Assembly (NCBI RefSeq): GCF_000092105.1
Contig: NC_014148.1
Span: forward strand, 4,110,001-4,142,000
Direction of reading: 5' to 3'
Origin: Planctopirus limnophila DSM 3776
GTDB lineage: Bacteria > Planctomycetota > Planctomycetia > Planctomycetales > Planctomycetaceae
DNA: 32,000 nt
Positions 4,193 through 30,770 of the stretch are shown piece after piece. The translations under genes were made by a program, and so were the position numbers. Within the stretch, counting starts at the first letter, position 1. Every line of letters starts with the position of its first letter. The notes under the pieces were generated by a model that was not told the DNA's origin, ran no database searches, and saw nothing but the letters and a program-made list of their open reading frames with translations.

Positions 4193-5275
4193 ATGTGGTG
4201 CCCTCAGTGCCAAGCCGATGTTGCTGCTGTGTTGATGCCGGATCACCGGCATTCACGATGCACGCATTGCGGAATGACATTGGCCGCCCGGCTCTCGACA
4301 CCCACGATACCGCAGGATCAAGAAACTAATCCGCCAGGAACTTTGCCTGCACCAGCGAGCTTAAATCTTCTTCGAGACGAAACATCAACGCGTAATGTGC
4401 GCGACGTTCTGGCCCGCTGGTCGACGCCACAGGCTTTGGAATCCCTGGATCGTCCCTTTCTCCCGGATCTCTCTGCCAGCCCATTACGAACCAGCAAGAC
4501 GCCAGCACCTCATTCCATCACTCGCGAACCTGCCGCTGAGCCGCCTACGAAGACTTCCACCGCTGCATCGAACTTCCCAAATAACGATGCTCCAACTCCT
4601 CCTTATGCGGCAGAGACGCTTCCCGTTCATCCGCAGGCTGCTCGCCGGGTTGATCTTTCGCATGGTGAGGGAGCACCACCCAAGCCGAAACATCGCCCCA
4701 AACGGCGAACCGACACGAAGGCGGTTCAGCGTCGCTTTGATCAACAGCAGTCGCGAATGGCCGGAAGAGGTCCGCATTTTGATGTGCGACTTCTGAGGGA
4801 ACTTGAGCAGGGACAGTACTCTTCCCACGCTATGCACGCATCGCCCACTCAGGCTCATCTACAGAAAGAATTGGCCAGTCTGCAACAAGCGAAAACCGAA
4901 AAGCCATTTAACTGGGGAATTGTCTCTGGTCAGGTCTGTGCCTATCTGGGTGTGGCCTTACTGACCTGTGGAACGTCGCTTGTGCTTTGGAGTCATTTTG
5001 GTGGCCCCGTCGAGCATGCACCGACTGGCTGGCTCATGACCACAGCAGGCCAGATGCTGCTCTTTCTGGGGGTTGTGACATTAGTTTCCTCCGGGATGGA
5101 ACAGACGACAGACGAAGTGGCCACGCGCATTCAGACACTGGGCGAAAAGATCCTGCGACTGGAAATCGCACAGAGAGAGTCGCATCTGCAGGCTCCTCAT
5201 TATGCCGGCAGTCGGCTGCGTACGAAGACCAAGTCGAGTGCTGGGCGGCCTGTTCGCCGCCGCGAAGAAGAGTAA
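4193..5275 (+). CDS. Hypothetical membrane protein with N-terminal zinc-ribbon
   Basis: The 360-aa ORF starts with ATG. Its N-terminus has CPQC-x17-CTHC, followed by a long Pro/Thr/Ala-rich region. Two hydrophobic helices (FNWGIVSGQVCAYLGVALLTCGTSLVLW, GWLMTTAGQMLLFLGVVTLVSSG) and a charged C-terminal helix follow. I recognise no family. Confidence 0.6.
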   Translation: MWCPQCQADVAAVLMPDHRHSRCTHCGMTLAARLSTPTIPQDQETNPPGTLPAPASLNLLRDETSTRNVRDVLARWSTPQALESLDRPFLPDLSASPLRTSKTPAPHSITREPAAEPPTKTSTAASNFPNNDAPTPPYAAETLPVHPQAARRVDLSHGEGAPPKPKHRPKRRTDTKAVQRRFDQQQSRMAGRGPHFDVRLLRELEQGQYSSHAMHASPTQAHLQKELASLQQAKTEKPFNWGIVSGQVCAYLGVALLTCGTSLVLWSHFGGPVEHAPTGWLMTTAGQMLLFLGVVTLVSSGMEQTTDEVATRIQTLGEKILRLEIAQRESHLQAPHYAGSRLRTKTKSSAGRPVRRREEE

Positions 5276-5374: not shown

Positions 5375-6112
5375 ATGATGAAAACTCAGACGATATTAAA
5401 CTGGGCTATCTGCTGCGGTCTGGTTGTAACCCCACTGGCTTGCACATCGACCAAGACGACAAATACGTCCCGTACGGCACGTGAGCAGTTACTGATTTCC
5501 AACGCAATTGATCATGCTCTCGAAAAGGTCGATTTGTCGACAATTCAAGGAGCGAACCTCTATATCGAGGAAAAATATCTCGAAGGGGTCGATAAAGCCT
5601 ACCTCGTCGGTTCGCTACGTCATCGCGCCATGCTGGCTGGGGCGAATATCGTCGCGAAAGCTGAAGACGCTGATATTGTCCTCGAACTGCGGTCGGGTTC
5701 TATCGGTACTGATTCGGCAGACTCATTTATCGGTTCACCCGAGATTACACTCCCTGGGATGCTGACACTTCCTGAAGTGCGACTTGTCAGCCGGTCACGT
5801 CAAACCGCGACCGCGAAACTGGGGTTACTGGCTTACGATCCCAAAAGTAAGCAGCTTCTGGGCCAGGGTGGGGTTTCATCAGCACAATCGGATGATAACA
5901 ACATCTTCGTTTTCGGTGTCGGGCCTTATCATTACGGTACCGTCAAAGAGGAAGTGGAGCGAACCGCCACACCACCTGCCACAACCGCTCAACAACTCCC
6001 CTCGCAAGTCGCTTTTCGTGGAACACGGCCCATGGGTTCGGCCATTGCCCGGGAGGTTAATGAGGAAGGCTCAGTTCAACTCACCGGCGACCAGCGACCG
6101 GCCGATGAATAG
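5375..6112 (+). CDS. Hypothetical lipoprotein
   Basis: The 245-aa ORF has a signal peptide with a lipobox-like VVTPLAC|TS. Coding-like composition runs throughout. I recognise no family. Confidence 0.65.
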   Translation: MMKTQTILNWAICCGLVVTPLACTSTKTTNTSRTAREQLLISNAIDHALEKVDLSTIQGANLYIEEKYLEGVDKAYLVGSLRHRAMLAGANIVAKAEDADIVLELRSGSIGTDSADSFIGSPEITLPGMLTLPEVRLVSRSRQTATAKLGLLAYDPKSKQLLGQGGVSSAQSDDNNIFVFGVGPYHYGTVKEEVERTATPPATTAQQLPSQVAFRGTRPMGSAIAREVNEEGSVQLTGDQRPADE

Positions 6113-6243: not shown

Positions 6244-6918
6244 TCAATACGAGCTACTCAGGCTGTCTTTGAACCAGTTCTCAAACTGTGTTGGCCACAT
6301 CGTCGTTGGCCGACCGAATTGATAAAAACTGACCTTGCTATTGGGTTGGATCACCAGCGACATCCTGCGTCCCTGGATCTTCAAACTCACGATCCTGGTG
6401 CGAGGTAACCACAAGGCTGTCGGACGTTCCATCCAGCGGGTGGCAAGCTCGATCGGTGTGATGGTTCCTGGAAGAGTTATCGATGCACTCTTTTCAGGAG
6501 AAGAGTCGAGCGTTTGTGGCGGCAGATCATTCGTAAACGATGTTTGACCTGCAGGATGAAACGCTTGTTCTGGTGATTTTCGCTGTGGTAAAGAACCCGG
6601 TTGCCGCCAGCAGAAACCAAGACTCCACCAGGTTCGATGCGACGCTGTTTTGAAACTGATTTTATGCGTCTCAAGCCATTCAATTTCGGGAAGCCAGGCC
6701 AAACCAATCGATGTCAGAATCAATGACCCATGGACCAACGACTGCCTGCGTTGAATAGCGATCGATGGTTGTTCGAGTAGTACGGCACCAAATCGGTCAG
6801 CAAGCTCACTGGTTGTCAGGTCAGGTTCAGAGAGATTCAATACGCTTGTACAGAAGGGACACCGTCCATATTGAGGTGACTCCCAGTTCAGACATTGGCG
6901 GCAAAGCATCAGCGTCAC
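6244..6918 (-). CDS. Hypothetical protein with N-terminal zinc-ribbon
   Basis: The 224-aa ORF has CRQC-x11-CPFC at the N-terminus. The rest is not recognisable by eye. Confidence 0.55.
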   Translation of the reverse strand: MTLMLCRQCLNWESPQYGRCPFCTSVLNLSEPDLTTSELADRFGAVLLEQPSIAIQRRQSLVHGSLILTSIGLAWLPEIEWLETHKISFKTASHRTWWSLGFCWRQPGSLPQRKSPEQAFHPAGQTSFTNDLPPQTLDSSPEKSASITLPGTITPIELATRWMERPTALWLPRTRIVSLKIQGRRMSLVIQPNSKVSFYQFGRPTTMWPTQFENWFKDSLSSSY

Positions 6919-20178: not shown

Positions 20179-20922
20179 TTACAGCGATGGACGTGGCTTG
20201 AGTTGCTCTTCGACCATAGGCTCAACCTTTTCCTGTGGCAGAACGCTCTTGCCTTCCAGAATGGATTCTGTCAGGTGCTGCAGGACGAGTTGAATCGAAC
20301 GGATGCTGTCGTCGTTGCCGGGAATGGGCAGATCGACCTGATCAGGATCGCAATCCGTATCAAGCAGAGCGATCGTCTTGATGCCCACGAGCTTGGCCTC
20401 GTGCAGCGCGTTGTGCTCTTTCCGAGGATCGACAATGACCATCGCCTCTGGCAGACGGTTCATGTTCCGCAGACCATCGAGGTTGCGTGTCATCTTGGTG
20501 CGTTCGCGGAGCAACGTCGAACGGCGTTTCTTCGAATAAGTCTCGATTTCGCCCGATTCAAAGAGCTGATCCAGCTCTTCCAGACGCTTGATACGACCAC
20601 GAATCGTGCGGAAGTTCGTAAAGACACCACCCAGCCAGCGGTAATCGACGAATGGCATACCGGCCTGATTGGCATACTCACGGATCGCATCCGAAGCCTG
20701 CTTTTTGGTGCCGCAGAACAGAATCAGGCTGCCCTGAGAAGCCACTTTCTGCAGGTATCGCTTGGCTCGCAACAGACCGCGAACCGTTTCCTTGATGTCG
20801 ATAATATGGATCAGATTGCGGCGGCCGTAGATGTAAGGCCGCATTTTGGGATTCCAGCGGCTGGTACGGTGACCGTAATGAATCCCGGCTTCAAGAAAAT
20901 CCTTGACGACAATATCGCTCAT
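20179..20922 (-). CDS. rpsB: 30S ribosomal protein S2
   Basis: [18 protein letters not shown] and the following sequence are canonical S2. I chose the ATG at 20922 (MSDIVVKD...). Confidence 0.95.
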
Positions 20923-21165
20923 GAAATCACCCAACTACTGCCGTTTAAGGCAGGGCTCGATCACTGAGAAACGAGTGCAGCAACGTTGCCACTCTCCTCG
21001 CCGGCCGACGTGGGAGCCTCCCAGTCACCGCCAAAAGCCATACAGGCACAGCCTTCGGTTCTGAATTGATATGTGGTGATGGTAGTCTGCCGCCAGAAGA
21101 CCGTCAAACCTGCCGGGATAATTAAGTGTACGTAAGTTTATATTCCGTAAATATTTTGCGAGAAA

Positions 21166-22107
21166 TCATTCTCCGTGAACCTCCCCTTCATTCCAAGTGG
21201 CCAGGAGCGGCAGGATTTCGGCGGATTCGTATGCCATGAACCGCACACTGCCGTCGCAGAATAGAAAATTTCCTCCCCCGGCATGCAGGCTCCAGAAGTG
21301 GAGGGCATCGCAATATTCGTCCAACTTGCCGGGTGCGAAAGGGTAGAGCCGATCTTCGCATTGTCCGATGGATACGAATTTATTGTGAGGAACCTGAGCC
21401 ACACGCTCTCTTACGCCCAGCAGCATATCGGCACTGCCACTCCCCTCCTGCCCTGCTCCGGTATACCACCAGCCAAAATTGTGATCAGGGCTCGGCGGAC
21501 GCTCCCCCACACACAAGGTCTGGCTTGTGCCATCGGTGATCTCCGCCAGTCGAATGCGCTTGCCATAGACAAGTGCGCCGGTTGAACTTCGATAATCAAC
21601 ACCTGAGACCCCCAGGTAACTGGTCATCCCCACCAGCGCTCCATTGAGTGTTGGTGCGTTTCGGGGGCGCGAGGCTCTTTCATCAAGCGGACAGACGTAA
21701 GCGGCCATCGTCTTCGCAAATGGATAATGGGGTGGATTCAGGTACGGTGTGTTATAGATCCGGTAAGCACGCTGAGATTCCTGCCATGGGAATGTCTGCT
21801 CAAGATGAGGCAGAATGGGAACCATCCACGACATTTCCAGGTGTTTCGGATCGGTCGAAGAATCCGATTTTCCTGCGGGAAAAAAGCCCTGAGCCGCCTC
21901 GAACGTGTGGAGTGCCACACCGATCTGTTTCAACTGGTTCTGGCACTGCAGCCTGGCTGCTGCCATTCTTGCCCACTGAACTGCTGGCAAAGTGATCGCT
22001 AGAAGGATTGCGATCACCCCGATGGCCACCAGCAATTCAATCATCGTGAAGCCTCTGGCGGCTAAACACTCGCACGACGGCGTGCGATCAAAGCGACGGC
22101 AGCGCAT
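21166..22107 (-). CDS. DUF1559 / H-X9-DG pseudopilin-like protein with prepilin-type N-terminal cleavage/methylation signal (paralog 1)
   Basis: It has the G|FTMIELLVAIGVIAILLAITLPAVQ class III signal, an LQCQNQLKQIGVALHTF block and a C-terminal HAGGGNFLFCDG (H-X9-DG). I prefer the ATG at 22107, which overlaps the upstream gene's end by 46 nt. Confidence 0.85.
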   Translation of the reverse strand: MRCRRFDRTPSCECLAARGFTMIELLVAIGVIAILLAITLPAVQWARMAAARLQCQNQLKQIGVALHTFEAAQGFFPAGKSDSSTDPKHLEMSWMVPILPHLEQTFPWQESQRAYRIYNTPYLNPPHYPFAKTMAAYVCPLDERASRPRNAPTLNGALVGMTSYLGVSGVDYRSSTGALVYGKRIRLAEITDGTSQTLCVGERPPSPDHNFGWWYTGAGQEGSGSADMLLGVRERVAQVPHNKFVSIGQCEDRLYPFAPGKLDEYCDALHFWSLHAGGGNFLFCDGSVRFMAYESAEILPLLATWNEGEVHGE

Positions 22108-23075
22108 AGCAATACCCCTCCGCAAACAAGCCACCACCAGCCCCAGCCTGTTTGAACTCCTTCAGGCTCGGGTAATCCATAATAAGTCAAATAGGCCTCT
22201 TTCCGATCCAAAGGTACTTCCCACTGCGAATAGTCAAATTCATCTCGCTGACTCGCAGGCTTCGCATTCCCCTTGTCATCAATTAAGAACACTTCAACCA
22301 CAGAAGGTAATGCCATACCTTGCACAGTCTGCCATCCCGAAAATCGAACTCCGTTGCACACTGGAATGCTTTTATCCGGCTCATGCACCTGATAGCACGA
22401 TTCATAGCGCACAGGAAAATCGTTGTACTGAGGTGCGTAGTAGATTTTGACCCTTGAAGGATTGTCAGAACTATAGATACGGCGAGAGAGCACCTCCTCC
22501 CTTGACAACGTTTTCAACTCAAATTCAATAAACTTAACCTCGGCACCCTCAATTATTGCACTTCCCTGATCAATAACCCGAGAAAAGTTCTGGCTAAGCT
22601 TATCCGACTTATTAGCTAACCATTTGAGAGTTCTCCATTGCAGTCGATCAGACTCATCAAGAGGGGACAACCCTCCACGGTCTGTAGAAAGGACGAGCGA
22701 TTTCAACACCCAGGGGTCATTGGAGTAACGCTCCAGTCGCGCCTGATAACCAGGATTAGAAATCATCATATAATGATGATTTTCACTGCTGCCTGGCAGA
22801 ACCGACTCAACAAAAAAATACTGACCGTCTCTCTTAATAGAGACTTTTCCGGGCTTTGTTTCGAGAACCTTGCCGGTTTCACGATCGATCTCCGGACTCG
22901 TGATATTTACAGAATAGCGATCCCCTGCCGAATACGAAGCCCATTTCTGCAGGAGACCGGAAAGCAAAGGATCGTGCGGCTTGCTCTGCGCTGAAACTAC
23001 AGCAGGTACTGCTGAAAAAGCTGCGAAGAACATAACCGTTATCATACATGCCGTTTTTGTTGGGTAAATCAACAA
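22062..23075 (-). CDS. Secreted protein with conserved PEP-CTERM-like C-terminal tail (tail-anchored paralog 1)
   Basis: It has an N-terminal signal peptide (...FAAFSAVPAVVSA|QS). The C-terminus is YLTYYGLPEPEGVQTGWGWWWLVCGGVLLCAAVALIARRRASV. It is paralogous to 24255-25280, 25403-26435 and 27045-28064. The start is a TTG at 23075 or an ATG at 23045. Confidence 0.7.
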   Translation of the reverse strand: MLIYPTKTACMITVMFFAAFSAVPAVVSAQSKPHDPLLSGLLQKWASYSAGDRYSVNITSPEIDRETGKVLETKPGKVSIKRDGQYFFVESVLPGSSENHHYMMISNPGYQARLERYSNDPWVLKSLVLSTDRGGLSPLDESDRLQWRTLKWLANKSDKLSQNFSRVIDQGSAIIEGAEVKFIEFELKTLSREEVLSRRIYSSDNPSRVKIYYAPQYNDFPVRYESCYQVHEPDKSIPVCNGVRFSGWQTVQGMALPSVVEVFLIDDKGNAKPASQRDEFDYSQWEVPLDRKEAYLTYYGLPEPEGVQTGWGWWWLVCGGVLLCAAVALIARRRASV

Positions 23076-23238
23076 TTTATTCTCGTTCTATTGAGCGTAT
23101 ACGGGGCAACTGAACAACCATTGTCTGGCGAGAGACAGCAGGCTGAATCAAACCTTCGCAGATGCCTTTGTATTCGGATGGGTTTTCATAGATGGTAGAT
23201 TGTTATTCCATGTAAAACAGCAATACGTAGAAACTGCA

Positions 23239-23259
23239 AGCATCGCTTGATGCGATGCT
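23239..23259 (-). terminator. Weak candidate terminator after DUF1559 paralog 2
   Basis: An 8-bp stem AGCATCGC/GCGATGCT with a 5-nt loop lies about 20 nt after the stop at 23278. The downstream U-tract on the minus strand is poor (UUGCAGUUUC). Confidence 0.3.
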
Positions 23260-23277
23260 ATTGATGATAATCAAGAT

Positions 23278-24258
23278 TTACTCCACGCGATTCTCCCCTT
23301 CATTTCTGGAGGCGAGGAGCGGCAGGATTTCGGCGGATTCATACGCCATGAACCGCACACTGCCATCGCAGAATAGAAAATTTCCTCCGCCGGCATGCAG
23401 GCTCCAGAAGTGGAGGGAATCGCAAAGCTCGTCGAGTCGGCCCGGTGCAAAGGGATATGGTTTGTCCGGGCAATGACCATCGGTAATAAATTTGTTGTGC
23501 GGCGTCTGGGCCACTCGCTCTTCAACTCCCAGCAGCATGTCGGCTGAACCACTCCCCTCCTGACCAACTCCCGTATACCACCAGCCAAAATTGTGATCAG
23601 GACTCGGCGGACGCTCGCCCACGCATAACGTCTGGCTCGTGCCGCGGGTCATATCAGAAAACCGAATCACTTGATCAAAGATCAGCACACCGTCCGAGGT
23701 CATGTGGTTTCTTCCCATGACTCCCAGGTAGCTCGTCAGGGCGACGAAACCTCCGTCAAGAGTTGAGGCACTGCGAATTTTTGACGCTCGCTCGTCGAGT
23801 GGACAGACATACGCCGGCACGACCTGGGCAAACGGATAATGGGGCGGGTTGGAGTAGGGGCTGGCTTTCATTTGATAAGCGGCTTGAGACTCATGCCAGA
23901 GAGTGGCCTGTTCGAGATGGGGCAGAATGGGAATCATCCAGGACATGGAATGCTGTTTGGGATTGGTTTTTAAGCCGGTCTTGCCCACAGGCAACTGGCT
24001 ATGTGACGCTTCGAACGTGTGGAGTGCCAGACCAATCTGCTTGAGCTTGTTCTGACATTCCAGACGTTTGGCGGCATGGCGTGACCACTGAACAGCGGGA
24101 ATCGTAATGGCGACCAGGAGGCCAATGACTCCCATCGCCACAAGCAGTTCGATCAATGTGAAGCCGCTCTTTGCGGCTTTGCTTTGCTGGAAAATGAAGT
24201 CCGCTAAAACGCTTGACAGCGAGCGGCAAGACACGGATCTGCGCAGTTCTGCGTTCAT
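23278..24258 (-). CDS. DUF1559 / H-X9-DG pseudopilin-like protein with prepilin-type signal (paralog 2)
   Basis: It has G|FTLIELLVAMGVIGLLVAITIPAVQ, LECQNKLKQIGLALHTF and HAGGGNFLFCDG. Its ATG (24256-24258) overlaps the stop of the upstream gene as ATGA. Confidence 0.85.
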   Translation of the reverse strand: MNAELRRSVSCRSLSSVLADFIFQQSKAAKSGFTLIELLVAMGVIGLLVAITIPAVQWSRHAAKRLECQNKLKQIGLALHTFEASHSQLPVGKTGLKTNPKQHSMSWMIPILPHLEQATLWHESQAAYQMKASPYSNPPHYPFAQVVPAYVCPLDERASKIRSASTLDGGFVALTSYLGVMGRNHMTSDGVLIFDQVIRFSDMTRGTSQTLCVGERPPSPDHNFGWWYTGVGQEGSGSADMLLGVEERVAQTPHNKFITDGHCPDKPYPFAPGRLDELCDSLHFWSLHAGGGNFLFCDGSVRFMAYESAEILPLLASRNEGENRVE

Positions 24259-25280
24259 GTGTGCCGCCTAACGGCGATGACCCAAACCGCGAAGCATGCC
24301 AGTCCTCCCGTAACCAGTAACCACCACCAGCCCCATCCCTTGGACACACCCTCCGGTTCTGGCAAGCCGTAATACGTTAAATACGTCTGTTCTTCGGGGA
24401 AGGGAGCGTCCCAGTTCGAGTGGTCGAACGTGAGAGTCTGCATCGGCGGTCCGTCGAGGGGTGAAATCCACAACTGCCAAATCTCAGCCTTCAAGGGAAT
24501 GTTCAAACCATCGAGTTCACTCCATTCGCTATACGCATGGGCGATCGGACGATGATACGACTTCCCATTAGAACTGAAATTCAAATCGAAGTCGATACGG
24601 ACAGGTGCTCCATCGACCTTGGAGGAGAGATAGAATTTGGCTTTAGGAGTATAGTTGACTGGTAGTAACGCCTTTTTGCGCTCTTCAGGCACATCGGGAA
24701 AGGTTGCTTCGAGCACCCGAACCTCTTCACCCCGCCATGTTTCTCGCGGCAGTTCCTTCAACAGGACACCGGGTTCGCCGAGTCGGTCGCGGAGGATGAC
24801 GGCTTGGCCTAAGTGCGGCAACTCGTTGAAATCATGTTCCCGACTCAGGTCGGGTGGAAGATTCGACCCCAGTCCCAGCTTTTTCAAGACCCAGCGATCA
24901 TTGTTCACCCGTCTCAATAAGGCCCCGTAATGGGAGTTGCGGATCAACAAGTTTGTTAGAGTTGTTTTTGGTCCTGTAGGGAAAGGATCCTCCATAATGT
25001 GATAGCTCGCCGCTTTCTTCAAATGGCTTATGGTGGAAGCAAATTGCATATCACCTGGATTCTCAGGGTTTACACGGGTTGATAGTGTCAACGAATACTG
25101 GAACTTATCCGGCAAGCCCGGAATCTTCCACCAGTTCAGAAGTTCAGCAGGCGTCCATTGCTGATGAGTAGGATTGGATTGCTGGTCAGCCGCCTCGCAG
25201 GCGGGAGCAAAGCCCATGAAGGTCGATACTGCGGAGCAAATCGCCGATAGGAGCAAGAGGCCAAGAAGATACTTGATCAT
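24255..25280 (-). CDS. Secreted protein with PEP-CTERM-like C-terminal tail (tail-anchored paralog 2)
   Basis: From the ATG at 25280 the protein reads MIKYLLGLLLLSAICSAVSTF... (signal peptide). The C-terminus is YLTYYGLPEPEGVSKGWGWWWLLVTGGLACFAVWVIAVRRHT. The longer ORF-track form (to 25562) overlaps the 3' end of paralog 3. An in-frame ATG at 25406 forms an ATGA overlap with the paralog 3 stop. Confidence 0.7.
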   Translation of the reverse strand: MIKYLLGLLLLSAICSAVSTFMGFAPACEAADQQSNPTHQQWTPAELLNWWKIPGLPDKFQYSLTLSTRVNPENPGDMQFASTISHLKKAASYHIMEDPFPTGPKTTLTNLLIRNSHYGALLRRVNNDRWVLKKLGLGSNLPPDLSREHDFNELPHLGQAVILRDRLGEPGVLLKELPRETWRGEEVRVLEATFPDVPEERKKALLPVNYTPKAKFYLSSKVDGAPVRIDFDLNFSSNGKSYHRPIAHAYSEWSELDGLNIPLKAEIWQLWISPLDGPPMQTLTFDHSNWDAPFPEEQTYLTYYGLPEPEGVSKGWGWWWLLVTGGLACFAVWVIAVRRHT

Positions 25281-25402
25281 AACCACATCCTGAGGATCAT
25301 CCTGCGTGCTGACGCCATCGGAAAGTCGCATGCAGGTGATTTTACATAACGTGTCGCAATCACTCCGCGTTTCATGTGCTTCGGATGGTCTGCGGAGCGA
25401 TA

Positions 25403-26435
25403 TCATGAAGACCTCCGGCGGATTAGAATCGTCATCGCGACTACCAGCAGCCCTCCCGCAAGTAGCAACCACCACCAGCCCCATCCCTTGGAGACACCTT
25501 CCGGTTCGGGAAGGCCGTAATAGGTCAGATAGGCCTGTTCCTTCGGAAACGGCGAGTCCCATTCCGAGTAATCAAAATCGGCGCTCCAGTGCGGCTTTCC
25601 CTGGGGCTCGAACGTGTCGCTGTACCAGCCTTCTTGTCGTCGGGGAAGGTGGAATCCACCGTGAGTGACCCAGTCGGTGTATCGGACTGTGGAATTCCTT
25701 GTTTTCGCTCCGGGCGAGTCGCCAAGTAAAAAAGTCTGGTCGAGACGTTGTATCGCATTCCCCAATCCTCTCCCGGAAAAAACGCGGGCCCAGACAATGT
25801 GAGGAATATACCGCGAAGTCTCTTGACGCGTGCCGGACCGAGGCGGAATGGTGACTTCAAACATCTTCGGTTGGACGCCGTCGGCAGTCCCTTCGTGATA
25901 ATCGTCTATACGGAGGCCGCCCTCCTCAAACCGTTCCTTCAGTCCAAGACCGACATGAGTGGGAAAATGAAACGATTCCCACCGTGCATCGATCAGCGTG
26001 TCGTAAGCTTTCTGATGCCGAAGTGCCAGAGAATTGAGCACCCACTTTTTCACCTGGGATTCGCAGCAATTTGGCGGCGTAGTCGGGATTGACAATCTCG
26101 ATGGCCTCCATCGCCCCTTCCGTATCCAGCGGGCGATAGTCGTGGATCCAGTGTCCTCCGTCCGATCGCACCGTTGATACATATCTCTTGAATACTTCTG
26201 TTGGAAGCTGATTCTTGAACTGGGATTGGGTTGATGCGATCTTCATTTGAAAAGATTCGGGGCGATCATCGTTCGACCACCGCCGAAGAAGCTCGTCCAA
26301 ACGTCGGCTTGCCACCACATCGTCGCCTGCACGACACTGCACATGTCGGCACGGCACGGCACTGAAGAGTAACCATGCCAACATGAGACGTATTGCAAAA
26401 CGGTGGTGGTTCGGTCGCTGTGGCCATAAGGACAT
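25403..26435 (-). pseudogene. Tail-anchored paralog 3, interrupted by a 1-nt frameshift at an A5 run
   Basis: ORF 25926-26435 supplies the signal peptide through ...IVNPDYAAKLLRIPGEK. ORF 25403-26182 supplies ...WVLNSLAL... through YLTYYGLPEPEGVSKGWGWWWLLLAGGLLVVAMTILIRRRSS. Together they reconstitute a 343-aa homolog if one A is removed from GGTGAAAAAGTGG (plus-strand T5 at 26046-26050). Confidence 0.65.
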
Positions 26436-26559
26436 ATGAAATGATCCAGCCGGGACGTTCGTGGGTCGAGTGGTGAAGTCCAGAATTCAGGCGCCCGACC
26501 ACATGGCATACCGGACATCGATCCTGTGGAAATTATCGTCAATCAGGGAGCCGGACGAT

Positions 26560-26862
26560 TCAACCGGCATGGCAATAGCAATTGATACTGTCGGTTGGGG
26601 AATCCCGACACTCGCAGAAGGCCGCGCCTCCAATGGGGTTTCCACAGATTGACCGGTCGTTTCCGCACGTTCGAGGTCCTCCGTTTACTGATCGACGATC
26701 TTTGCAGGCGTCGGAAGTTCCGCTACAGTTAATGTGGTAGGTTGCTCCATCTCCCGTTTCTTCGCCATCCTCCGGGGTATTGTCATCGGCCCAAACGCTG
26801 GTGATGAAGGCGGCGGTCGAGAGGCAAAAGCAGGCGAAACCGAGGGTCAAAAATCTTCGCAT
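26560..26862 (-). CDS. Small secreted 8-cysteine protein (P1)
   Basis: The 100-aa ORF starts at ATG 26862, preceded by AGGAAA. It has a signal peptide MRRFLTLGFACFCLSTAAFITSVWA|DD, an acidic spacer, then the Cys pattern C-x6-C-x12-C-x6-C-x9-C-x-C-x9-C-x-C. It is paralogous to 28197-28510. Confidence 0.6.
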   Translation of the reverse strand: MRRFLTLGFACFCLSTAAFITSVWADDNTPEDGEETGDGATYHINCSGTSDACKDRRSVNGGPRTCGNDRSICGNPIGGAAFCECRDSPTDSINCYCHAG

Positions 26863-26952
26863 GGCAAGTTTCCTAGTTGAGTGACAAAATCTTCGTTCAG
26901 AGACAATCCCTTCAGCGGATGGCCAACCTCGACACAGAGGGGGCGGTGGGAG

Positions 26953-27048
26953 AGACCGCTGGACAGCGGGAATCGTGATGGCGATCAGCAGGCCAATGAC
27001 TCCCATCGCAACAAGCAGTTCGATCAATGTGTAGCCGGGGCGATTCAT
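26953..27048 (-). pseudogene. DUF1559 gene stub (only leader plus pilin-like helix retained)
   Basis: MNRPGYTLIELLVAMGVIGLLIAITIPAVQRS is near-identical at the DNA level to the 5' end of 23278-24258. Similarity stops abruptly near 26950. Its ATG overlaps the paralog 4 stop as ATGA, and the reading frame runs on without a stop into P1. Confidence 0.6.
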
Positions 27049-28064
27049 ACCGAGACTCTTTTCCAGCCCAGCCAGATAGCGATAACGAAACATCCTGCGA
27101 CCGCCCACCACCACCAGCTCATGCGTCGTGAGATCCCCTCCGGTTCTGGCAAGCCGTAATAAGTTAAATACGCCTGTTCCTTGGGGAAGGGTGCGTCCCA
27201 GTTGCCAACGTTTAATTCTGCTGTCTCGCTGGGAACGTCTTTGATGGCAATTCTCCACAATTGCCATGCCTCAAATCTCAACGGAATTGTTAAATCGCCG
27301 ACCTTACTCCACTGACTATACGCAAAAGAAAGGGGTCTTACATATTCTTTTCCGTCGAGTGTATATTTCAATTCAAAATCCATTCGCGCAGGGCCAGACG
27401 GTTCTGACTTCCTGAAATACAGTCGTGCCGATGGAGGAAAGTCGATCGGCCCCTTGCCTATCCTTTGCTCTTCTGAAGCTTCGGGCAAAGCGACATCCAG
27501 CACATCTACATCTTCGCCATTCCAGTTCTCCGTCCACGTTTTTGTGATGGAAACACCAGGTTCTTTCAGACGATTGCGAATACCTACATTTGTACCAGAA
27601 TGCTGAGAGAGCATCGCTTTGGGGTTGACCGTCAGTTCCGGCGGATGATTTCGCCCTGGCGACAGCCTTTTGACGACCCAGCGACCATTATCGATTTTTT
27701 GCAGCATAGCGGCATACTCTGGATTACAGATCACGAGCCTGGTTATTGTACTAGTTGCACCAGTAGGCGAGGGAGACTCACAGACATAATACCCTGGTTG
27801 GAACTTGTAACGCCCGATGGTGGTAGCGACTCGCTGATCCTGCGGATTCTCCGGATCCAGACGAATGGTGCGTTTCACCTCAAGCTGGAAACGATCCGGA
27901 AGTTCCGGAAGCTTCCAGCGATCCTCAATTATTGCTGGAGCCCACTTTCCAGAATTTATGGATTCGCCGGGCGCCGCCACTCCGACAGCGAAAAACTGGA
28001 AAAACAAAAAAGTCCAAAGCACTTGTCGTAGTCTCAATCGAATTCCGACAGACAACCTGGACAT
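27045..28064 (-). CDS. Secreted protein with PEP-CTERM-like C-terminal tail (tail-anchored paralog 4)
   Basis: The 339-aa ORF starts with ATG and has a signal peptide (...FFQFFAVGVAAPG). The C-terminus is YLTYYGLPEPEGISRRMSWWWWAVAGCFVIAIWLGWKRVSV. It shares internal blocks with paralog 2, for example WKLPELPDRFQ versus WKIPGLPDKFQ, and NPEYAAMLQKIDNGRWVVKRL versus NSHYGALLRRVNNDRWVLKKL. Confidence 0.7.
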   Translation of the reverse strand: MSRLSVGIRLRLRQVLWTFLFFQFFAVGVAAPGESINSGKWAPAIIEDRWKLPELPDRFQLEVKRTIRLDPENPQDQRVATTIGRYKFQPGYYVCESPSPTGATSTITRLVICNPEYAAMLQKIDNGRWVVKRLSPGRNHPPELTVNPKAMLSQHSGTNVGIRNRLKEPGVSITKTWTENWNGEDVDVLDVALPEASEEQRIGKGPIDFPPSARLYFRKSEPSGPARMDFELKYTLDGKEYVRPLSFAYSQWSKVGDLTIPLRFEAWQLWRIAIKDVPSETAELNVGNWDAPFPKEQAYLTYYGLPEPEGISRRMSWWWWAVAGCFVIAIWLGWKRVSV

Positions 28065-28094
28065 CTCAACCCTTATCTTGAATATGTATGGACA

Positions 28095-28127
28095 ACATTT
28101 CCGCAGTCTAACTATCTGCGGAAATGT
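28095..28127. other. Perfect 12-bp stem-loop between P2 and paralog 4
   Basis: The string is ACATTTCCGCAG-tctaactat-CTGCGGAAATGT. It lies 70 nt after the P2 stop and 30 nt before the paralog 4 ATG, and has no U-tract. Confidence 0.5.
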
Positions 28128-28196
28128 CGTAGGGATCAGGTCAGGAGAAAACAGCTTTTAAAATCATCTATTTTTGTAAATGAAGAATGCTTATTG

Positions 28197-28510
28197 CTAA
28201 CTCGCCCGGCAATAGCATAACGTGGCGTTTTCTGGCGAAGTCGGAAGAACGGCGCAGTCGCAATCTGTTCGGGGAGGAATGGCGGCTCCACAAATATTAG
28301 GATCACCCACATGACAACTATTGTTCATCCCACTGAAGGGGAAACCCCTTTGATTACAATGATATGAAGGGTTTTTACATGAAGGATTATCATAAGTCGT
28401 TGGATCATCGCCAGGTTCTTCGTTCACAGGATCATCGGCGGAGACGCTCGCAATCAGTGCGATCGCACAGACACAGAGATAAATCCAGATAGTGAGAAGA
28501 GTCTTTTCAT
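28197..28510 (-). pseudogene. Small secreted 8-cysteine protein (P2), start separated from body by an apparent 1-nt frameshift
   Basis: The body frame (GTG ORF 28197-28427) extends upstream without a stop as ...TLLTIWIYLCVCAIALIASVSA|DDPVNEEP, a good signal peptide. The only ATG (28508-28510, preceded by AGGAAA) is one frame off. One extra A in ATGAAAAGACT would give MKKTLLTIW.... The Cys pattern matches P1. Confidence 0.55.
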
Positions 28511-28547
28511 GCGTTTTCCTTTAATTTCCAGAACATTCCGAACACAT

Positions 28548-29612
28548 CTAGCGAACAGGATCACCTGTCAGCTTCTCTACACTGGCCTCATTCAACTTCT
28601 CGGCAATGGTCGCATGTGGTGGCGAGTCTCGAACCACCGAAAAAGAAAGCCGCTCCTGGCGCAGGCGCTGTTGATGGAGCTTTGTCGTGTTGACCGTTTC
28701 AGTCGCGGGCTGTGCCTCGGCGAAGGGACTTTGAATCGGGCCGGGAGACTTGACCGCATTCAGCTCGTTGAACGAAGAAGAGTTGACGAGTTCTGCTCCA
28801 TTGTGAGACTCATCGCCAACAAATAACGCCAGAGAGCCATCGCCCCGCTGGGCATGCGGAAAAAGTTTTAACTTCATTTCCAGGAAAATGGTCTCCTGGG
28901 CGGGAATGACGAGCGGAATCGGTGTCACGAGAATGATGCCGCAAACAGATTCTTTACCGACGATCGCCACAGGTGTGCTGCGCACATTGCGGACAGGGAT
29001 GCGGGCCTCGACCCATTCCACCGAGGGTTCAATCGGCGTGGCGGGGATGGGGTGATGACTGCTGGTAAGTGCCTGTGCTGAGATCGCATGCGGCCAACTG
29101 ATCGATAACGCCAGCACCATGGCAAGAACCATCAGCGTGACCATGAGGAGCGATTCTCCCGCTGCTCGGGCCACCGGTCGTAACAGGCTTCCCGTGTGAG
29201 GCCTCGAAACGATGGCACACAGATAGGAGACCGCAATGATGCTGACATCGAGAATCACGATACTCCACGGGCGAAAGCTCAGTTTTCCGAAGCAGCCGCA
29301 GGTCGTTTCCCCCGCGAGAGCTGCCGAGAGTGCAAAAACTGCCAGGATCGTCATCAGGAGTGCCGCCAGGATCCAGACCTCGCGGGATCGAAAGTTGGTC
29401 AGAACCAGAGTGGCGACAAAGACGAGGATTGAGACCGAAAAGAGCTCAAAAGCGGTCGTACTCGAGGCTGGCTCGAAATAGAGCAGATCGTGCAGTGACT
29501 GATACGATTTCAAAGCGGCTGAGAGTATCAGCAGACCGCTGATCAGCACGGAGGCCAGCTTGGGAATAACGCCGAGTTCGGGCCAGAAGGCAGACGCTGC
29601 GCGCAGATCCAT
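28548..29612 (-). CDS. MauE/DoxX-like polytopic membrane protein (CGCFG motif) fused to a DUF1573-like C-terminal domain
   Basis: The 354-aa ORF starts with ATG. By eye it has about five hydrophobic helices, with CGCFG (29286-29300) just after helix 3, as I recall for MauE/DoxX redox-associated membrane proteins. The C-terminal ~150 aa have a beta-rich pattern (VEARIPVRNVRSTPVAIVGKESVCGIILVTPIPLVIPAQETIFLEMKLKL) resembling DUF1573. Confidence 0.65.
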   Translation of the reverse strand: MDLRAASAFWPELGVIPKLASVLISGLLILSAALKSYQSLHDLLYFEPASSTTAFELFSVSILVFVATLVLTNFRSREVWILAALLMTILAVFALSAALAGETTCGCFGKLSFRPWSIVILDVSIIAVSYLCAIVSRPHTGSLLRPVARAAGESLLMVTLMVLAMVLALSISWPHAISAQALTSSHHPIPATPIEPSVEWVEARIPVRNVRSTPVAIVGKESVCGIILVTPIPLVIPAQETIFLEMKLKLFPHAQRGDGSLALFVGDESHNGAELVNSSSFNELNAVKSPGPIQSPFAEAQPATETVNTTKLHQQRLRQERLSFSVVRDSPPHATIAEKLNEASVEKLTGDPVR

Positions 29613-29813: not shown

Positions 29814-30770
29814 TCACACCAGATACCGCGAGGCACCTTGTTTCAATAGCAGGTGGGCCACGTTCGCCCCGAGTTCATGAGCGGCATCAAGAGCGTTCCC
29901 ACTGCCATATTGAGAAAGTGGCCCTTGCATCGAACTTGCAGCCGCTAACGTTTCAGAACCATCGGGTGCGATGAGAATCGCTTCCAGATGGAGAGTTTCG
30001 GGCGACTTCCACGAAGCCCAGGTCCCCACGGGAGCATGACAACCCGCTTCCAATGTACGCAAGACGGCACGTTCGGCATCAACAGCCAGTCGTGTCTGGC
30101 GATCTTCCAATTGGCTGACCCAGCGGATCGTCGCTTCATCCCCGTGGCGGCATTCTAATCCCAGGGCACCTTGACCAGCCGCTGGAAACATCGTGGGGGG
30201 GGCAAGAATCAGCGAGATGCGATCACTCCAGCCCAGGCGGGATAATCCAGCCACTGCCAGAATCAGTCCTTCGTACTCACCGGCATCGAGCTTTCTGATG
30301 CGCGTGTCGAGGTTGCCGCGAACTTCGGAGCAAACAAGATCGGGGCGAATTCTCAAGAGCTGTGCCTGCCGGCGCGGGCTGCCGGTCCCGATCCGTGCGC
30401 CACGAGGCAACATGGCGAGTGAAGCGGGGCCGGAATGACCTGTGGGTAACAGCAGCGCATCGGCCACCGGTGCTCGCGCGGGGACAGCGGCGAGTTCCAG
30501 CCCGGCTGTGGGGACAGTCGGCAGATCTTTCAGGCTGTGAACAGCAATATCCGCTCGGCCTTCGAGTAATGCCGCCTGAACTTCGCGAGTAAAGACGCCC
30601 TGCCCGCCAAACTGACGCAAAGGCTCCCCCTGAACTCGATCACCCGTCGTGGTGACATGCACGAGTTCGACTGTGAGTTCAGGATCCAGCGATCGTAACG
30701 AATCCGCAACAAAGTTGGCCTGCCAGAGTGCAAGCTGACTCGCACGCGTGGCAATTCGAAGTACAGGCAT
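29814..30770 (-). CDS. hemC: Hydroxymethylbilane synthase (porphobilinogen deaminase)
   Basis: RIATRASQLALWQA and AVHSLKDLPT are present, along with the cofactor-cysteine context LEAGCHAPVG. The length is 318 aa. Confidence 0.93.
   Translation of the reverse strand: MPVLRIATRASQLALWQANFVADSLRSLDPELTVELVHVTTTGDRVQGEPLRQFGGQGVFTREVQAALLEGRADIAVHSLKDLPTVPTAGLELAAVPARAPVADALLLPTGHSGPASLAMLPRGARIGTGSPRRQAQLLRIRPDLVCSEVRGNLDTRIRKLDAGEYEGLILAVAGLSRLGWSDRISLILAPPTMFPAAGQGALGLECRHGDEATIRWVSQLEDRQTRLAVDAERAVLRTLEAGCHAPVGTWASWKSPETLHLEAILIAPDGSETLAAASSMQGPLSQYGSGNALDAAHELGANVAHLLLKQGASRYLV

Follow-up and report, generated by a model that had tools for sequence, protein, structure and literature searches.

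A LolA-fold, DUF1559 and MauE-like envelope cassette with variable Cys-rich mini-proteins between rpsB and hemC in Planctopirus limnophila

Do the ten consecutive minus-strand open reading frames (ORFs) between rpsB (20179–20934) and hemC (29814–30770) of Planctopirus limnophila DSM 3776 form a system, or are they a chance run of paralogs? An original prediction, made from the sequence alone, had called them an accessory, co-directional cluster of coupled two-gene modules, in which DUF1559 genes pair with ~340-aa secreted paralogs, accompanied by Cys-rich mini-proteins and a MauE-like membrane protein. We evaluated it in the window, by which we mean the whole 32,000-nucleotide stretch analysed here (NC_014148.1, positions 4,110,001 to 4,142,000, with coordinates counted from its first letter). 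All ten ORFs were found, and the description of the cluster as accessory and co-directional is supported. What lies there is a copy, expanded in tandem and partly decayed, of an envelope cassette specific to Planctomycetota. The ancestral order of the cassette is a MauE~DUF1573 protein, a Sec-secreted 8-Cys mini-protein, at least one transmembrane (TM)-anchored LolA-fold protein and a dedicated DUF1559 protein. The parts have known folds or are DUFs, but no description exists of the LolA-fold family, of its motif or of the cassette as a system. Our literature search turned up no paper that deals with partners of DUF1559, with LolA-like proteins of Planctomycetes or with MauE and DUF1573 together; the original prediction, too, knew of no described fixed pairing of DUF1559 with a ~340-aa secreted partner. 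Because a transposon sequencing (Tn-seq) paper on P. limnophila lists the flanking genes rpsB and hemC as Plim_3194 and Plim_3202, the cluster corresponds to Plim_3195–3201. Four independent read-set assemblies carry an identical protein for paralog 4 (par4) and the same gene order.

Gene order in distant loci and the DUF1559 partner

Comparing 3 genomic, 20 metagenomic and 11 further loci, annotated with our own hidden Markov models (HMMs) and Pfam, we found a common order that runs from MauE~DUF1573 (or MauE and then separate TM-DUF1573 genes) through a mini-protein gene and one to three LolA-fold genes, sometimes with an Lnt-like gene behind them, to DUF1559. The cassette mini-protein has 90–115 aa, a signal peptide and at least 8 Cys, and ends CxC...CxC. 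This order recurs in 20+ distant loci, Pirellulaceae included, that share only ~15–25% LolA-fold identity, such that the neighbourhood survey suggested alongside the original prediction places the LolA-fold/DUF1559 linkage well outside Planctopirus. MauE and/or TM-DUF1573 together with a mini-protein gene stand upstream of the LolA-fold gene in 10 of the 11 loci with enough upstream sequence, and the mini-protein gene is its direct upstream neighbour in 14 loci. On the other side, a DUF1559 gene follows the last LolA-fold gene in 12 of the 15 loci whose 3' side is visible, the three exceptions being two loci with a convergent gene (L032, L037) and one with insertion sequence (IS) elements (L014).

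DUF1559 is the largest planctomycete paralog family, with 74 members in R. baltica, two essential genes in P. limnophila and no known function; P. limnophila has 68 paralogs (PMC10632474). The two full-length members in the window are DUF1559-2 (23278–24258), which carries a prepilin-type leader, GFTLIELLV, the DUF1559 domain and H-X9-DG, and DUF1559-1 (21166–22107, or to 22137). Together with a truncated stub described below they are bona fide members of the family, the two full genes scoring 125.7 and 130.9 bits with PF07596 (cutoff 23.3), 38.4 and 39.0 bits with the H-X9-DG model TIGR04294 (cutoff 19) and, for the prepilin motif (G|F-T-L-I-E), 24.0 and 27.8 bits with PF07963 (cutoff 21.2) and 26.8 and 27.3 bits with TIGR02532 (cutoff 16.3). 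DUF1559 proteins that adjoin LolA-fold genes in distant loci are 38–53% identical to DUF1559-2, across loci whose LolA-fold proteins align by BLAST only at the tail, whereas non-adjacent DUF1559 proteins on the same contigs reach 24–31%; we therefore consider the pairing real and the partner a dedicated subfamily, to which DUF1559-2 belongs and which is distinct from, and better conserved than, the rest of the family.

Junctions between the two gene types are tight and carry signals of translational coupling. In the window, ATGA stop/start overlaps join par4 to the DUF1559 stub (GTATGAATC) and par2 to DUF1559-2 (ACATGAACG), and par1 and DUF1559-1 overlap by 46 nt if DUF1559-1 starts at ATG 22107, the last start that would still lie ahead of the G|F site of prepilin cleavage; all three junctions were as first described, the 46 nt given that start. 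Gaps of 11–34 nt separate the two genes in L008, L010, L015 and L021, and in one protein, P0117, they are a single 610-aa ORF that reads LolA-fold, YGLPEP, TM helix, 13 residues, G|FSLVELLV and a full DUF1559 domain. The topology of this natural fusion fits a prepilin, with an out-to-in helix, a cytoplasmic leader and an in-to-out pilin helix. The claimed pairing thus stands as a linkage, carried by 12 of 15 loci, the fusion and the subfamily, and falls as a two-gene module of fixed 1:1 composition: as a rule a single DUF1559 gene stands 3' of one to three arrayed LolA-fold genes, it is absent from two distant loci, and on the DUF1559 side only 2–3 of the 68 P. limnophila paralogs are paired, most having no LolA-fold partner. 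Operon partners, a natural fusion and a dedicated subfamily together give a concrete, testable DUF1559 hypothesis in a genetically tractable species.

The first cassette gene (28548–29612, minus strand) encodes what is probably a MauE/DoxX-type polytopic membrane protein with a C-terminal DUF1573-like Ig-like domain. It scores 27.0 bits with PF07291, at the cutoff of 27, and has CGCFG at residue 105. Its C-terminal half drew nothing from Pfam, NCBIfam, PADLOC or PDB searches, and our own TM-DUF1573 HMM matches residues 167–280 at E=3.7e-7. Homologues in distant loci give 34 bits in L016, MauE matches at E≤1e-5 in L031, L032, L035 and L037, and MauE plus DUF1573 called by Pfam; every MauE homologue keeps CGC[FL]G, and a Cys motif is conserved in the DUF1573 domain. 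In methylamine dehydrogenase (MADH), maturation of the 12-Cys small subunit depends genetically on MauE, and the cassette resembles that system in setting a CxC MauE-type membrane protein beside a small exported Cys-rich protein. It differs in that no mau genes were found in the window or related loci, MauD and the dehydrogenase included, in the fusion of MauE to DUF1573, in a score that lies exactly at the Pfam cutoff, and in a Cys-rich partner that is hypervariable and unrelated to MauA. The original prediction had treated the MauE-like protein and the mini-proteins as separate oddities; they turned out to be the most constant partners of the cassette.

Individual arrangements vary on the common order (lol standing for a LolA-fold gene). 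L031 reads MauE277, mini101, lol318, DUF1559; L008, from a Pirellulaceae metagenome-assembled genome (MAG), DoxX/MauE-like, mini, lol, DUF1559; L035/L036 MauE+DUF1573, mini94, three lol, split TM-DUF1573, DUF1559; and L022/L024 TM-DUF1573, mini, lol, Lnt-like, DUF1559. Units of TM-DUF1573, mini and lol are repeated in L016, L018 and L026. The Lnt-like gene (LNT_N plus CN_hydrolase, ~514 aa) follows the LolA-fold gene in one cassette clade (L022:5114–6655, L024:1954–3501, L018:3961–4485), with fragments at L026:1748–1882, L026:3946–4080 and L028:1347–1880; in L022 and L024 it lies directly ahead of a longer DUF1559 type, and in the Lnt-type loci the first Cys of the mini-protein falls 0–3 residues past the predicted signal cleavage. 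Transposase or IS genes (ISL3-like, IS66-like, DDE_Tnp_1) directly flank or truncate LolA-fold genes on several metagenomic contigs (L012:858–1460, L014:1176–1886, L029:2125–2949 and L009:2–1096, of which only L029 was typed by Pfam and the rest by eye), which suggests that the cassette often sits in plastic regions. In L025 (2864–3040), a (TG)n microsatellite that reads CVCVCV... replaces the mini-protein gene immediately upstream of a LolA-fold–DUF1559 pair.

The LolA-fold paralogs and their C-terminal tail

The four ~340-aa paralogs of the window, par1 (22062–23075), par2 (24255–25280), par3 (25403–26435) and par4 (27045–28064), all on the minus strand, are homologous at 20–39% identity, par1 being the most divergent (20% identical to par4). 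They had been described as belonging to no family that could be placed by eye, and profile searches were proposed; sequence and profile searches of Pfam, NCBIfam, PADLOC and PDB returned no match, and across 60 diverse family members no Pfam family, LolA-type included, recurs even at E≤1. Structure prediction and Foldseek, proposed in the same place, gave a different answer. An AlphaFold2 (AF2) model of par4, built on a 10-sequence alignment (predicted local distance difference test, pLDDT, 80.3; predicted template-modelling score, pTM, 0.69), shows, from the N- to the C-terminus, a cleavable helix, a barrel of 13 strands into which helices are inserted, and a TM helix. Its top 15 Foldseek matches in the PDB are all of the LolA superfamily (E 1.5e-8 to 5e-4) and include NE2245 (3buu, E=1.5e-8), P. 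gingivalis LolA3, 3bk5, DUF1329, LprG, LolB, LppX and RseB, with probability 1.00 and target-normalised template-modelling scores of 0.41–0.47 for 3buu, 9tp6, 3bk5, 4z48, 3mha and 3wjt; against viral structures nothing meaningful was found (scores ≤0.25). From the model and these matches, we take the paralogs to be signal-peptide-bearing periplasmic LolA-fold proteins held at the cytoplasmic membrane by the C-terminal helix. By predicted fold they belong to the LolA superfamily, such that the earlier statement holds for curated sequence families and not for the fold, and the description of secreted, C-terminally anchored proteins is supported.

This placement comes with marked differences. The paralogs share with LolA, LolB, LprG, LppX and RseB an open beta-barrel and, with their signal peptide, a periplasmic location, but they have no sequence-level relation to that superfamily, they carry a C-terminal TM helix and YGLPEP motif where its members are soluble or N-terminally lipidated, they are not linked to LolCDE or to any transporter gene in the loci, and several divergent paralogs share one operon. 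Lipoprotein status was considered for the LolA-fold proteins and rejected, as they have no canonical lipobox.

The family is larger than word-seeded searching reveals. A word-seeded homology search recovered Planctopirus relatives only, and one with the 60-sequence alignment only 8 proteins; when 1.84 billion representatives were searched exhaustively with a profile, 152 proteins came up at E≤1e-3, 22 of these at E≤1e-10, and almost all are 290–380 aa long. Neither Pfam nor NCBIfam contains this undescribed LolA-fold family, which counts at least 152 clusters at 50% identity.

All four window paralogs have a tail in which an invariant YLTYYGLPEPEG is followed by a W-rich TM helix and a basic end, the motif lying at 22158–22193 (par1), 24348–24383 (par2), 25496–25531 (par3) and 27135–27170 (par4). 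The C-terminus reads [FCY]-x-L-[ST]-x-[YF]-G-[LI]-P-E-P in 136 of 153 family representatives, and after P-E-P come 6–12 residues, then a TM helix rich in Trp and finally a cluster of Arg/Lys. Across 60 aligned sequences, whose mean column identity is 18%, the tail G, P, E and P do not vary, nor does the Tyr of a barrel N-P-x-Y. Among the four paralogs, YLTYYGLPEPEG is identical as protein, while the 23-codon block around it is 61–91% identical as DNA and differs by 3–11 synonymous codon changes per paralog pair. An invariant protein encoded by DNA this divergent, with mostly synonymous changes in its core, points to purifying selection, and gene conversion as the source of the identical tails was rejected on the same figures. 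Of 154 profile hits, 140 had body and tail together, the tail-only hits being short fragments, and the tail is confined to the LolA-fold family, which has a diagnostic motif that can be converted straight away into a model.

Mini-proteins, recombination and gene decay in Planctopirus

Within Planctopirus the locus always lies between hemC and rpsB, and its gene content varies. A related strain (L030) has a minimal form (hemC, MauE, mini, lol, lol, DUF1559, rpsB); the MAG L005 has MauE, mini, lol, lol, a lol 5' fragment, mini, lol and DUF1559; and the window and P. hydrillae (L006) have MauE, mini, lol, the DUF1559 stub, mini, lol, lol, DUF1559, lol and DUF1559. Protein identity between the window and L005 declines from the flanks to the mini-proteins (rpsB 100%, tsf 99.6%, hemC 95%, MauE 92%, DUF1559-2 90%, par4 87%, par2 83%, P2 65%, P1 45%). 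By blastn, blocks conserved at 90–95% (MauE with the 5' half of P2, LolA-fold bodies, tail/DUF1559 junctions and the P1 leader) alternate with blocks that cannot be aligned (the mature parts of the mini-proteins, intergenic DNA, the next LolA-fold gene over its first ~50 codons, and whole extra LolA-fold genes). This mosaic showed conserved MauE~DUF1573 (5') and DUF1559 (3') genes bracketing a variable, recombining payload of mini-protein and LolA-fold genes. Set between two essential housekeeping genes and with content that varies by strain, the locus is a convenient natural experiment.

The pattern is sharpest in the mini-protein P1 (26560–26862, minus strand), which has a signal peptide (cleavage VWA|DD) and a 75-aa mature peptide with 8 Cys, ending FCEC...CYC. 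The mini-proteins matched nothing in Pfam, NCBIfam, PADLOC or PDB searches, P1 has only one homologue in a search of 5.8e9 proteins, and its AF2 model, on a 3-sequence alignment, was unusable (pLDDT 51). Lipoprotein status was rejected for the mini-proteins as well, again for want of a canonical lipobox. DNA alignment and the mosaic map delimit a leader block (26782–26957; L005:7122–7337; ~176 nt) made up of the 95 nt upstream of P1 and 27 signal-peptide codons, which is ~98% identical, while mature P1 is only ~35% identical, the collapse coming immediately past the A-D-D cleavage region. The block adjoins the DUF1559 stub in this genome and L006 but a LolA-fold 5' fragment in L005; as its truncated neighbour changes from strain to strain, it acts like a recombination junction or a portable leader. 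Allele comparison showed mini-protein mature regions that are hypervariable behind a conserved leader. A leader that is kept while the mature part is swapped is usual in conflict and recognition systems and has not been described in Planctomycetota. In the Planctopirus-like strain L030, the first mini-protein (2675–2974) has 7 Cys and no terminal CxC and ends QCFVKPSSV; its signal peptide, MKRLFSLSAICLCV..., is closely related, and its mature peptide makes a third variant.

Three of the genes are damaged. The other mini-protein, P2, had been given as the ORF 28197–28510 (minus strand); it would encode a signal peptide and an 8-Cys mature peptide ending CDC...CYC, but this 314-nt ORF contains internal stops and is not intact, and comparison with two related genomes (L005, L006) places a 1-nt deletion at about 28472–28492, within the signal-peptide codons, such that the claim of an intact ORF does not hold. 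P2 is intact in the MAG L005. Its P. hydrillae homologue (L006:2099–2494) is also damaged, by ~2 nt missing ahead of the final CYC codons, and as the lesions differ we consider the decay independent in the two species. The frameshift claimed for par3 was borne out and traced to one extra A within an A-run (26039–26057): deleting one A restores a full-length protein, the par3 ortholog is intact in P. hydrillae (L006), and the split gene calls are the same in the four read-set assemblies.

The third case is the DUF1559 stub (26953–27048, minus strand), ATGA-coupled to par4, which keeps only the first ~32 DUF1559 codons, that is, the prepilin leader and alpha1-N. It is 90% identical to the 5' end of DUF1559-2 in a repeat comparison, and its region matches the par2'-tail/DUF1559 junction of L005 by blastn; on these alignments, the stub is a remnant of a LolA-tail/DUF1559 junction. 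The stub and P1 had been listed as separate genes. Both are present, and P1 has its own AGGA-ATG start at 26862, but the stub has no stop at 26953, and an ORF at 26560–27267 runs from it into P1 in frame. With the two in frame and stop-free, ATGA reinitiation after par4 could give a pilin-leader/P1 fusion protein. The same in-frame, stop-free arrangement occurs in P. hydrillae (L006:3548–4102).

Functional readings of the cassette and minor features of the locus

The function that we propose, tentatively and as a possibility that falls short of probable, is maturation of the mini-protein followed by its pilin-linked display or export. The mini-protein would be exported by Sec, and its oxidative folding would be driven by a thiol relay leading from the CGC of MauE to the DUF1573 domain with its Cys. 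The LolA-fold protein would hold it at the outer face of the cytoplasmic membrane, from where the co-translated DUF1559 minor (pseudo)pilin would take it over or present it, the N-terminal helix of this pilin lying beside the LolA-fold TM helix; a type IV filament or a type II secretion system-like machine, encoded elsewhere, would then display or export the peptide. That DUF1559, LolA-fold and MauE~DUF1573 relay together make up a new envelope system that matures and displays or exports hypervariable, cassette-swapped, disulfide-rich mini-proteins is a more doubtful proposition. If true, polymorphic peptide payloads would be tied to type IV filament subunits by a new route, and a DUF1559 subfamily would receive its first functional assignment. 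A minor pilin serves as adapter for a co-encoded secreted protein in TcpB–TcpF and CofB–CofJ (PMC8179133), and the cassette likewise encodes a pilin-like protein with a small secreted one; the analogy is functional only, as the cassette has no pilus assembly genes in the locus and adds LolA-fold and MauE components.

Several observations weigh against display or export on a pilin. No assembly ATPase, platform, secretin or prepilin peptidase gene was found in any locus, and the ratios of mini-protein to LolA-fold to DUF1559 genes vary (1:1, 1:2, 1:3, 0:1). LolA-fold proteins characteristically bind acyl chains, not peptides, and the Lnt-like gene in some loci points to lipid chemistry. Among Planctopirus alleles, mature mini-proteins and the LolA-fold bodies downstream of them show no co-variation beyond orthologues. 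The YGLPEP tail is conserved independently of DUF1559 adjacency, as the MauE–mini–lol loci L032 and L037 have no adjacent DUF1559. Finally, with P2 and par3 frameshifted, one DUF1559 gene truncated and the Plim_3198/3200 paralog pair listed in the Tn-seq table as 0 essential, 1 non-essential and 1 unclear, the system is dispensable in culture.

The main rival is a toxin/immunity array, in which the mini-proteins would be Sec-exported, disulfide-bonded antibacterial peptides matured with MauE~DUF1573, the LolA-fold proteins sequestering immunity proteins, any extra copies of which would be orphan immunity genes, and DUF1559 an aid to release across the outer membrane; we hold it to be unlikely, yet a serious contender. 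It shares with polymorphic toxin and bacteriocin arrays a conserved signal peptide and leader before a hypervariable mature peptide with a fixed Cys framework, modular recombination, with mosaic blocks formed by mini-protein mature regions and neighbouring LolA-fold 5' ends or whole genes, and strain-dependent gene content at a fixed chromosomal site. The gene order would be toxin then immunity, tandem LolA-fold genes occur without a mini-protein gene (par2, par1, L019, L005, L035), par4 is kept intact downstream of an inactivated P2, and the C-terminal CxC...CxC resembles cystine-ladder hairpin peptides. No co-variation was seen, however, P2 and its L005 allele being 73% identical and the downstream LolA-fold proteins 32%, and P1 is intact beside a frameshifted par3. 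A 340-aa, LolA-like protein is also large and unlike known bacteriocin immunity proteins, no PADLOC, toxin, immunity or bacteriocin family was matched, and the mature peptides are acidic and polar, not cationic and amphipathic.

Rather less likely is a role in lipid or lipoprotein handling, with the LolA-fold protein taking up acyl chains, or some other hydrophobic constituent of the envelope, at the inner membrane and the mini-proteins and DUF1559 acting as cargo or acceptor; where an Lnt-like enzyme is present, the substrate, possibly the pilin or the mini-protein, would be N-acylated and then moved to the outer layers. All Foldseek matches bind lipids or lipoproteins (LolA, LolB, LprG with phosphatidylinositol mannoside or triacylglycerol, LppX, RseB), the Lnt-like gene lies between LolA-fold and DUF1559 genes in L022 and L024 and after the LolA-fold gene in L018, and in the Lnt-type loci the first Cys of the mini-protein lies close behind the predicted signal cleavage. 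Against this, Lnt-like genes are absent from the window and most loci, the mini-proteins have no lipobox, the par4 model is silent on ligand, and both the hypervariability of the mini-proteins and the MauE link are left unexplained.

The original prediction had called the tail sorting-like, and the corresponding reading, a new PEP-CTERM-like signal at which an exosortase-like enzyme encoded elsewhere cleaves LolA-fold cargo and attaches it to the envelope, with the DUF1559 link secondary, seems improbable to us. The paralogs have the three elements of such a signal, a P-E-P-containing motif (strict in 136 of 153 representatives), a TM helix and a basic cluster that closes the protein, though a 6–12-residue spacer separates P-E-P from the helix and the tail of P0117 is internal. 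Neither full proteins nor tails matched TIGR02595 (PEP-CTERM) or another curated sorting-domain model, the best score being 17 bits for MYXO-CTERM against a cutoff of 20, in one paralog only, and the isolated tails gave only sub-threshold generic matches to NCBIfam sorting-signal models at E≤10. No sortase-like gene was found in any locus and no exosortase in the window or the compared loci, and the tail decorates a single family whereas real sorting signals decorate many unrelated proteins. With the sorting claim not upheld, we read the tail as a functional motif next to the membrane that is particular to this family. A merely accidental adjacency, or decaying junk in a paralog-rich genome, for which the 68 DUF1559 paralogs, the 3 of 10 disrupted ORFs and the non-essential genes might speak, is very improbable, being contradicted by an order that recurs in Pirellulaceae and many metagenomic loci at ~15–25% LolA-fold identity, by the dedicated DUF1559 subfamily and natural fusion, and by purifying selection on the tail.

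Minor features of the locus remain. Rfam and tRNA scans found nothing, and a promoter/terminator scan of the locus gave sites no more numerous than in shuffled sequence. A perfect 7-bp inverted repeat (GCATCGC-ATCAA-GCGATGC, 23240–23258, minus strand) lies 20 nt past the DUF1559-2 stop, in the 200-nt gap before par1, and may mark the end of a transcript or form a processing hairpin; lacking a T-run behind it, it went unreported by the terminator scan. Elsewhere in the window, two ORFs without a Pfam hit (4193–5275, 360 aa, plus strand; 6244–6918, 224 aa, minus strand) adjoin a DUF6655 gene (5375–6112), upstream of the cluster.

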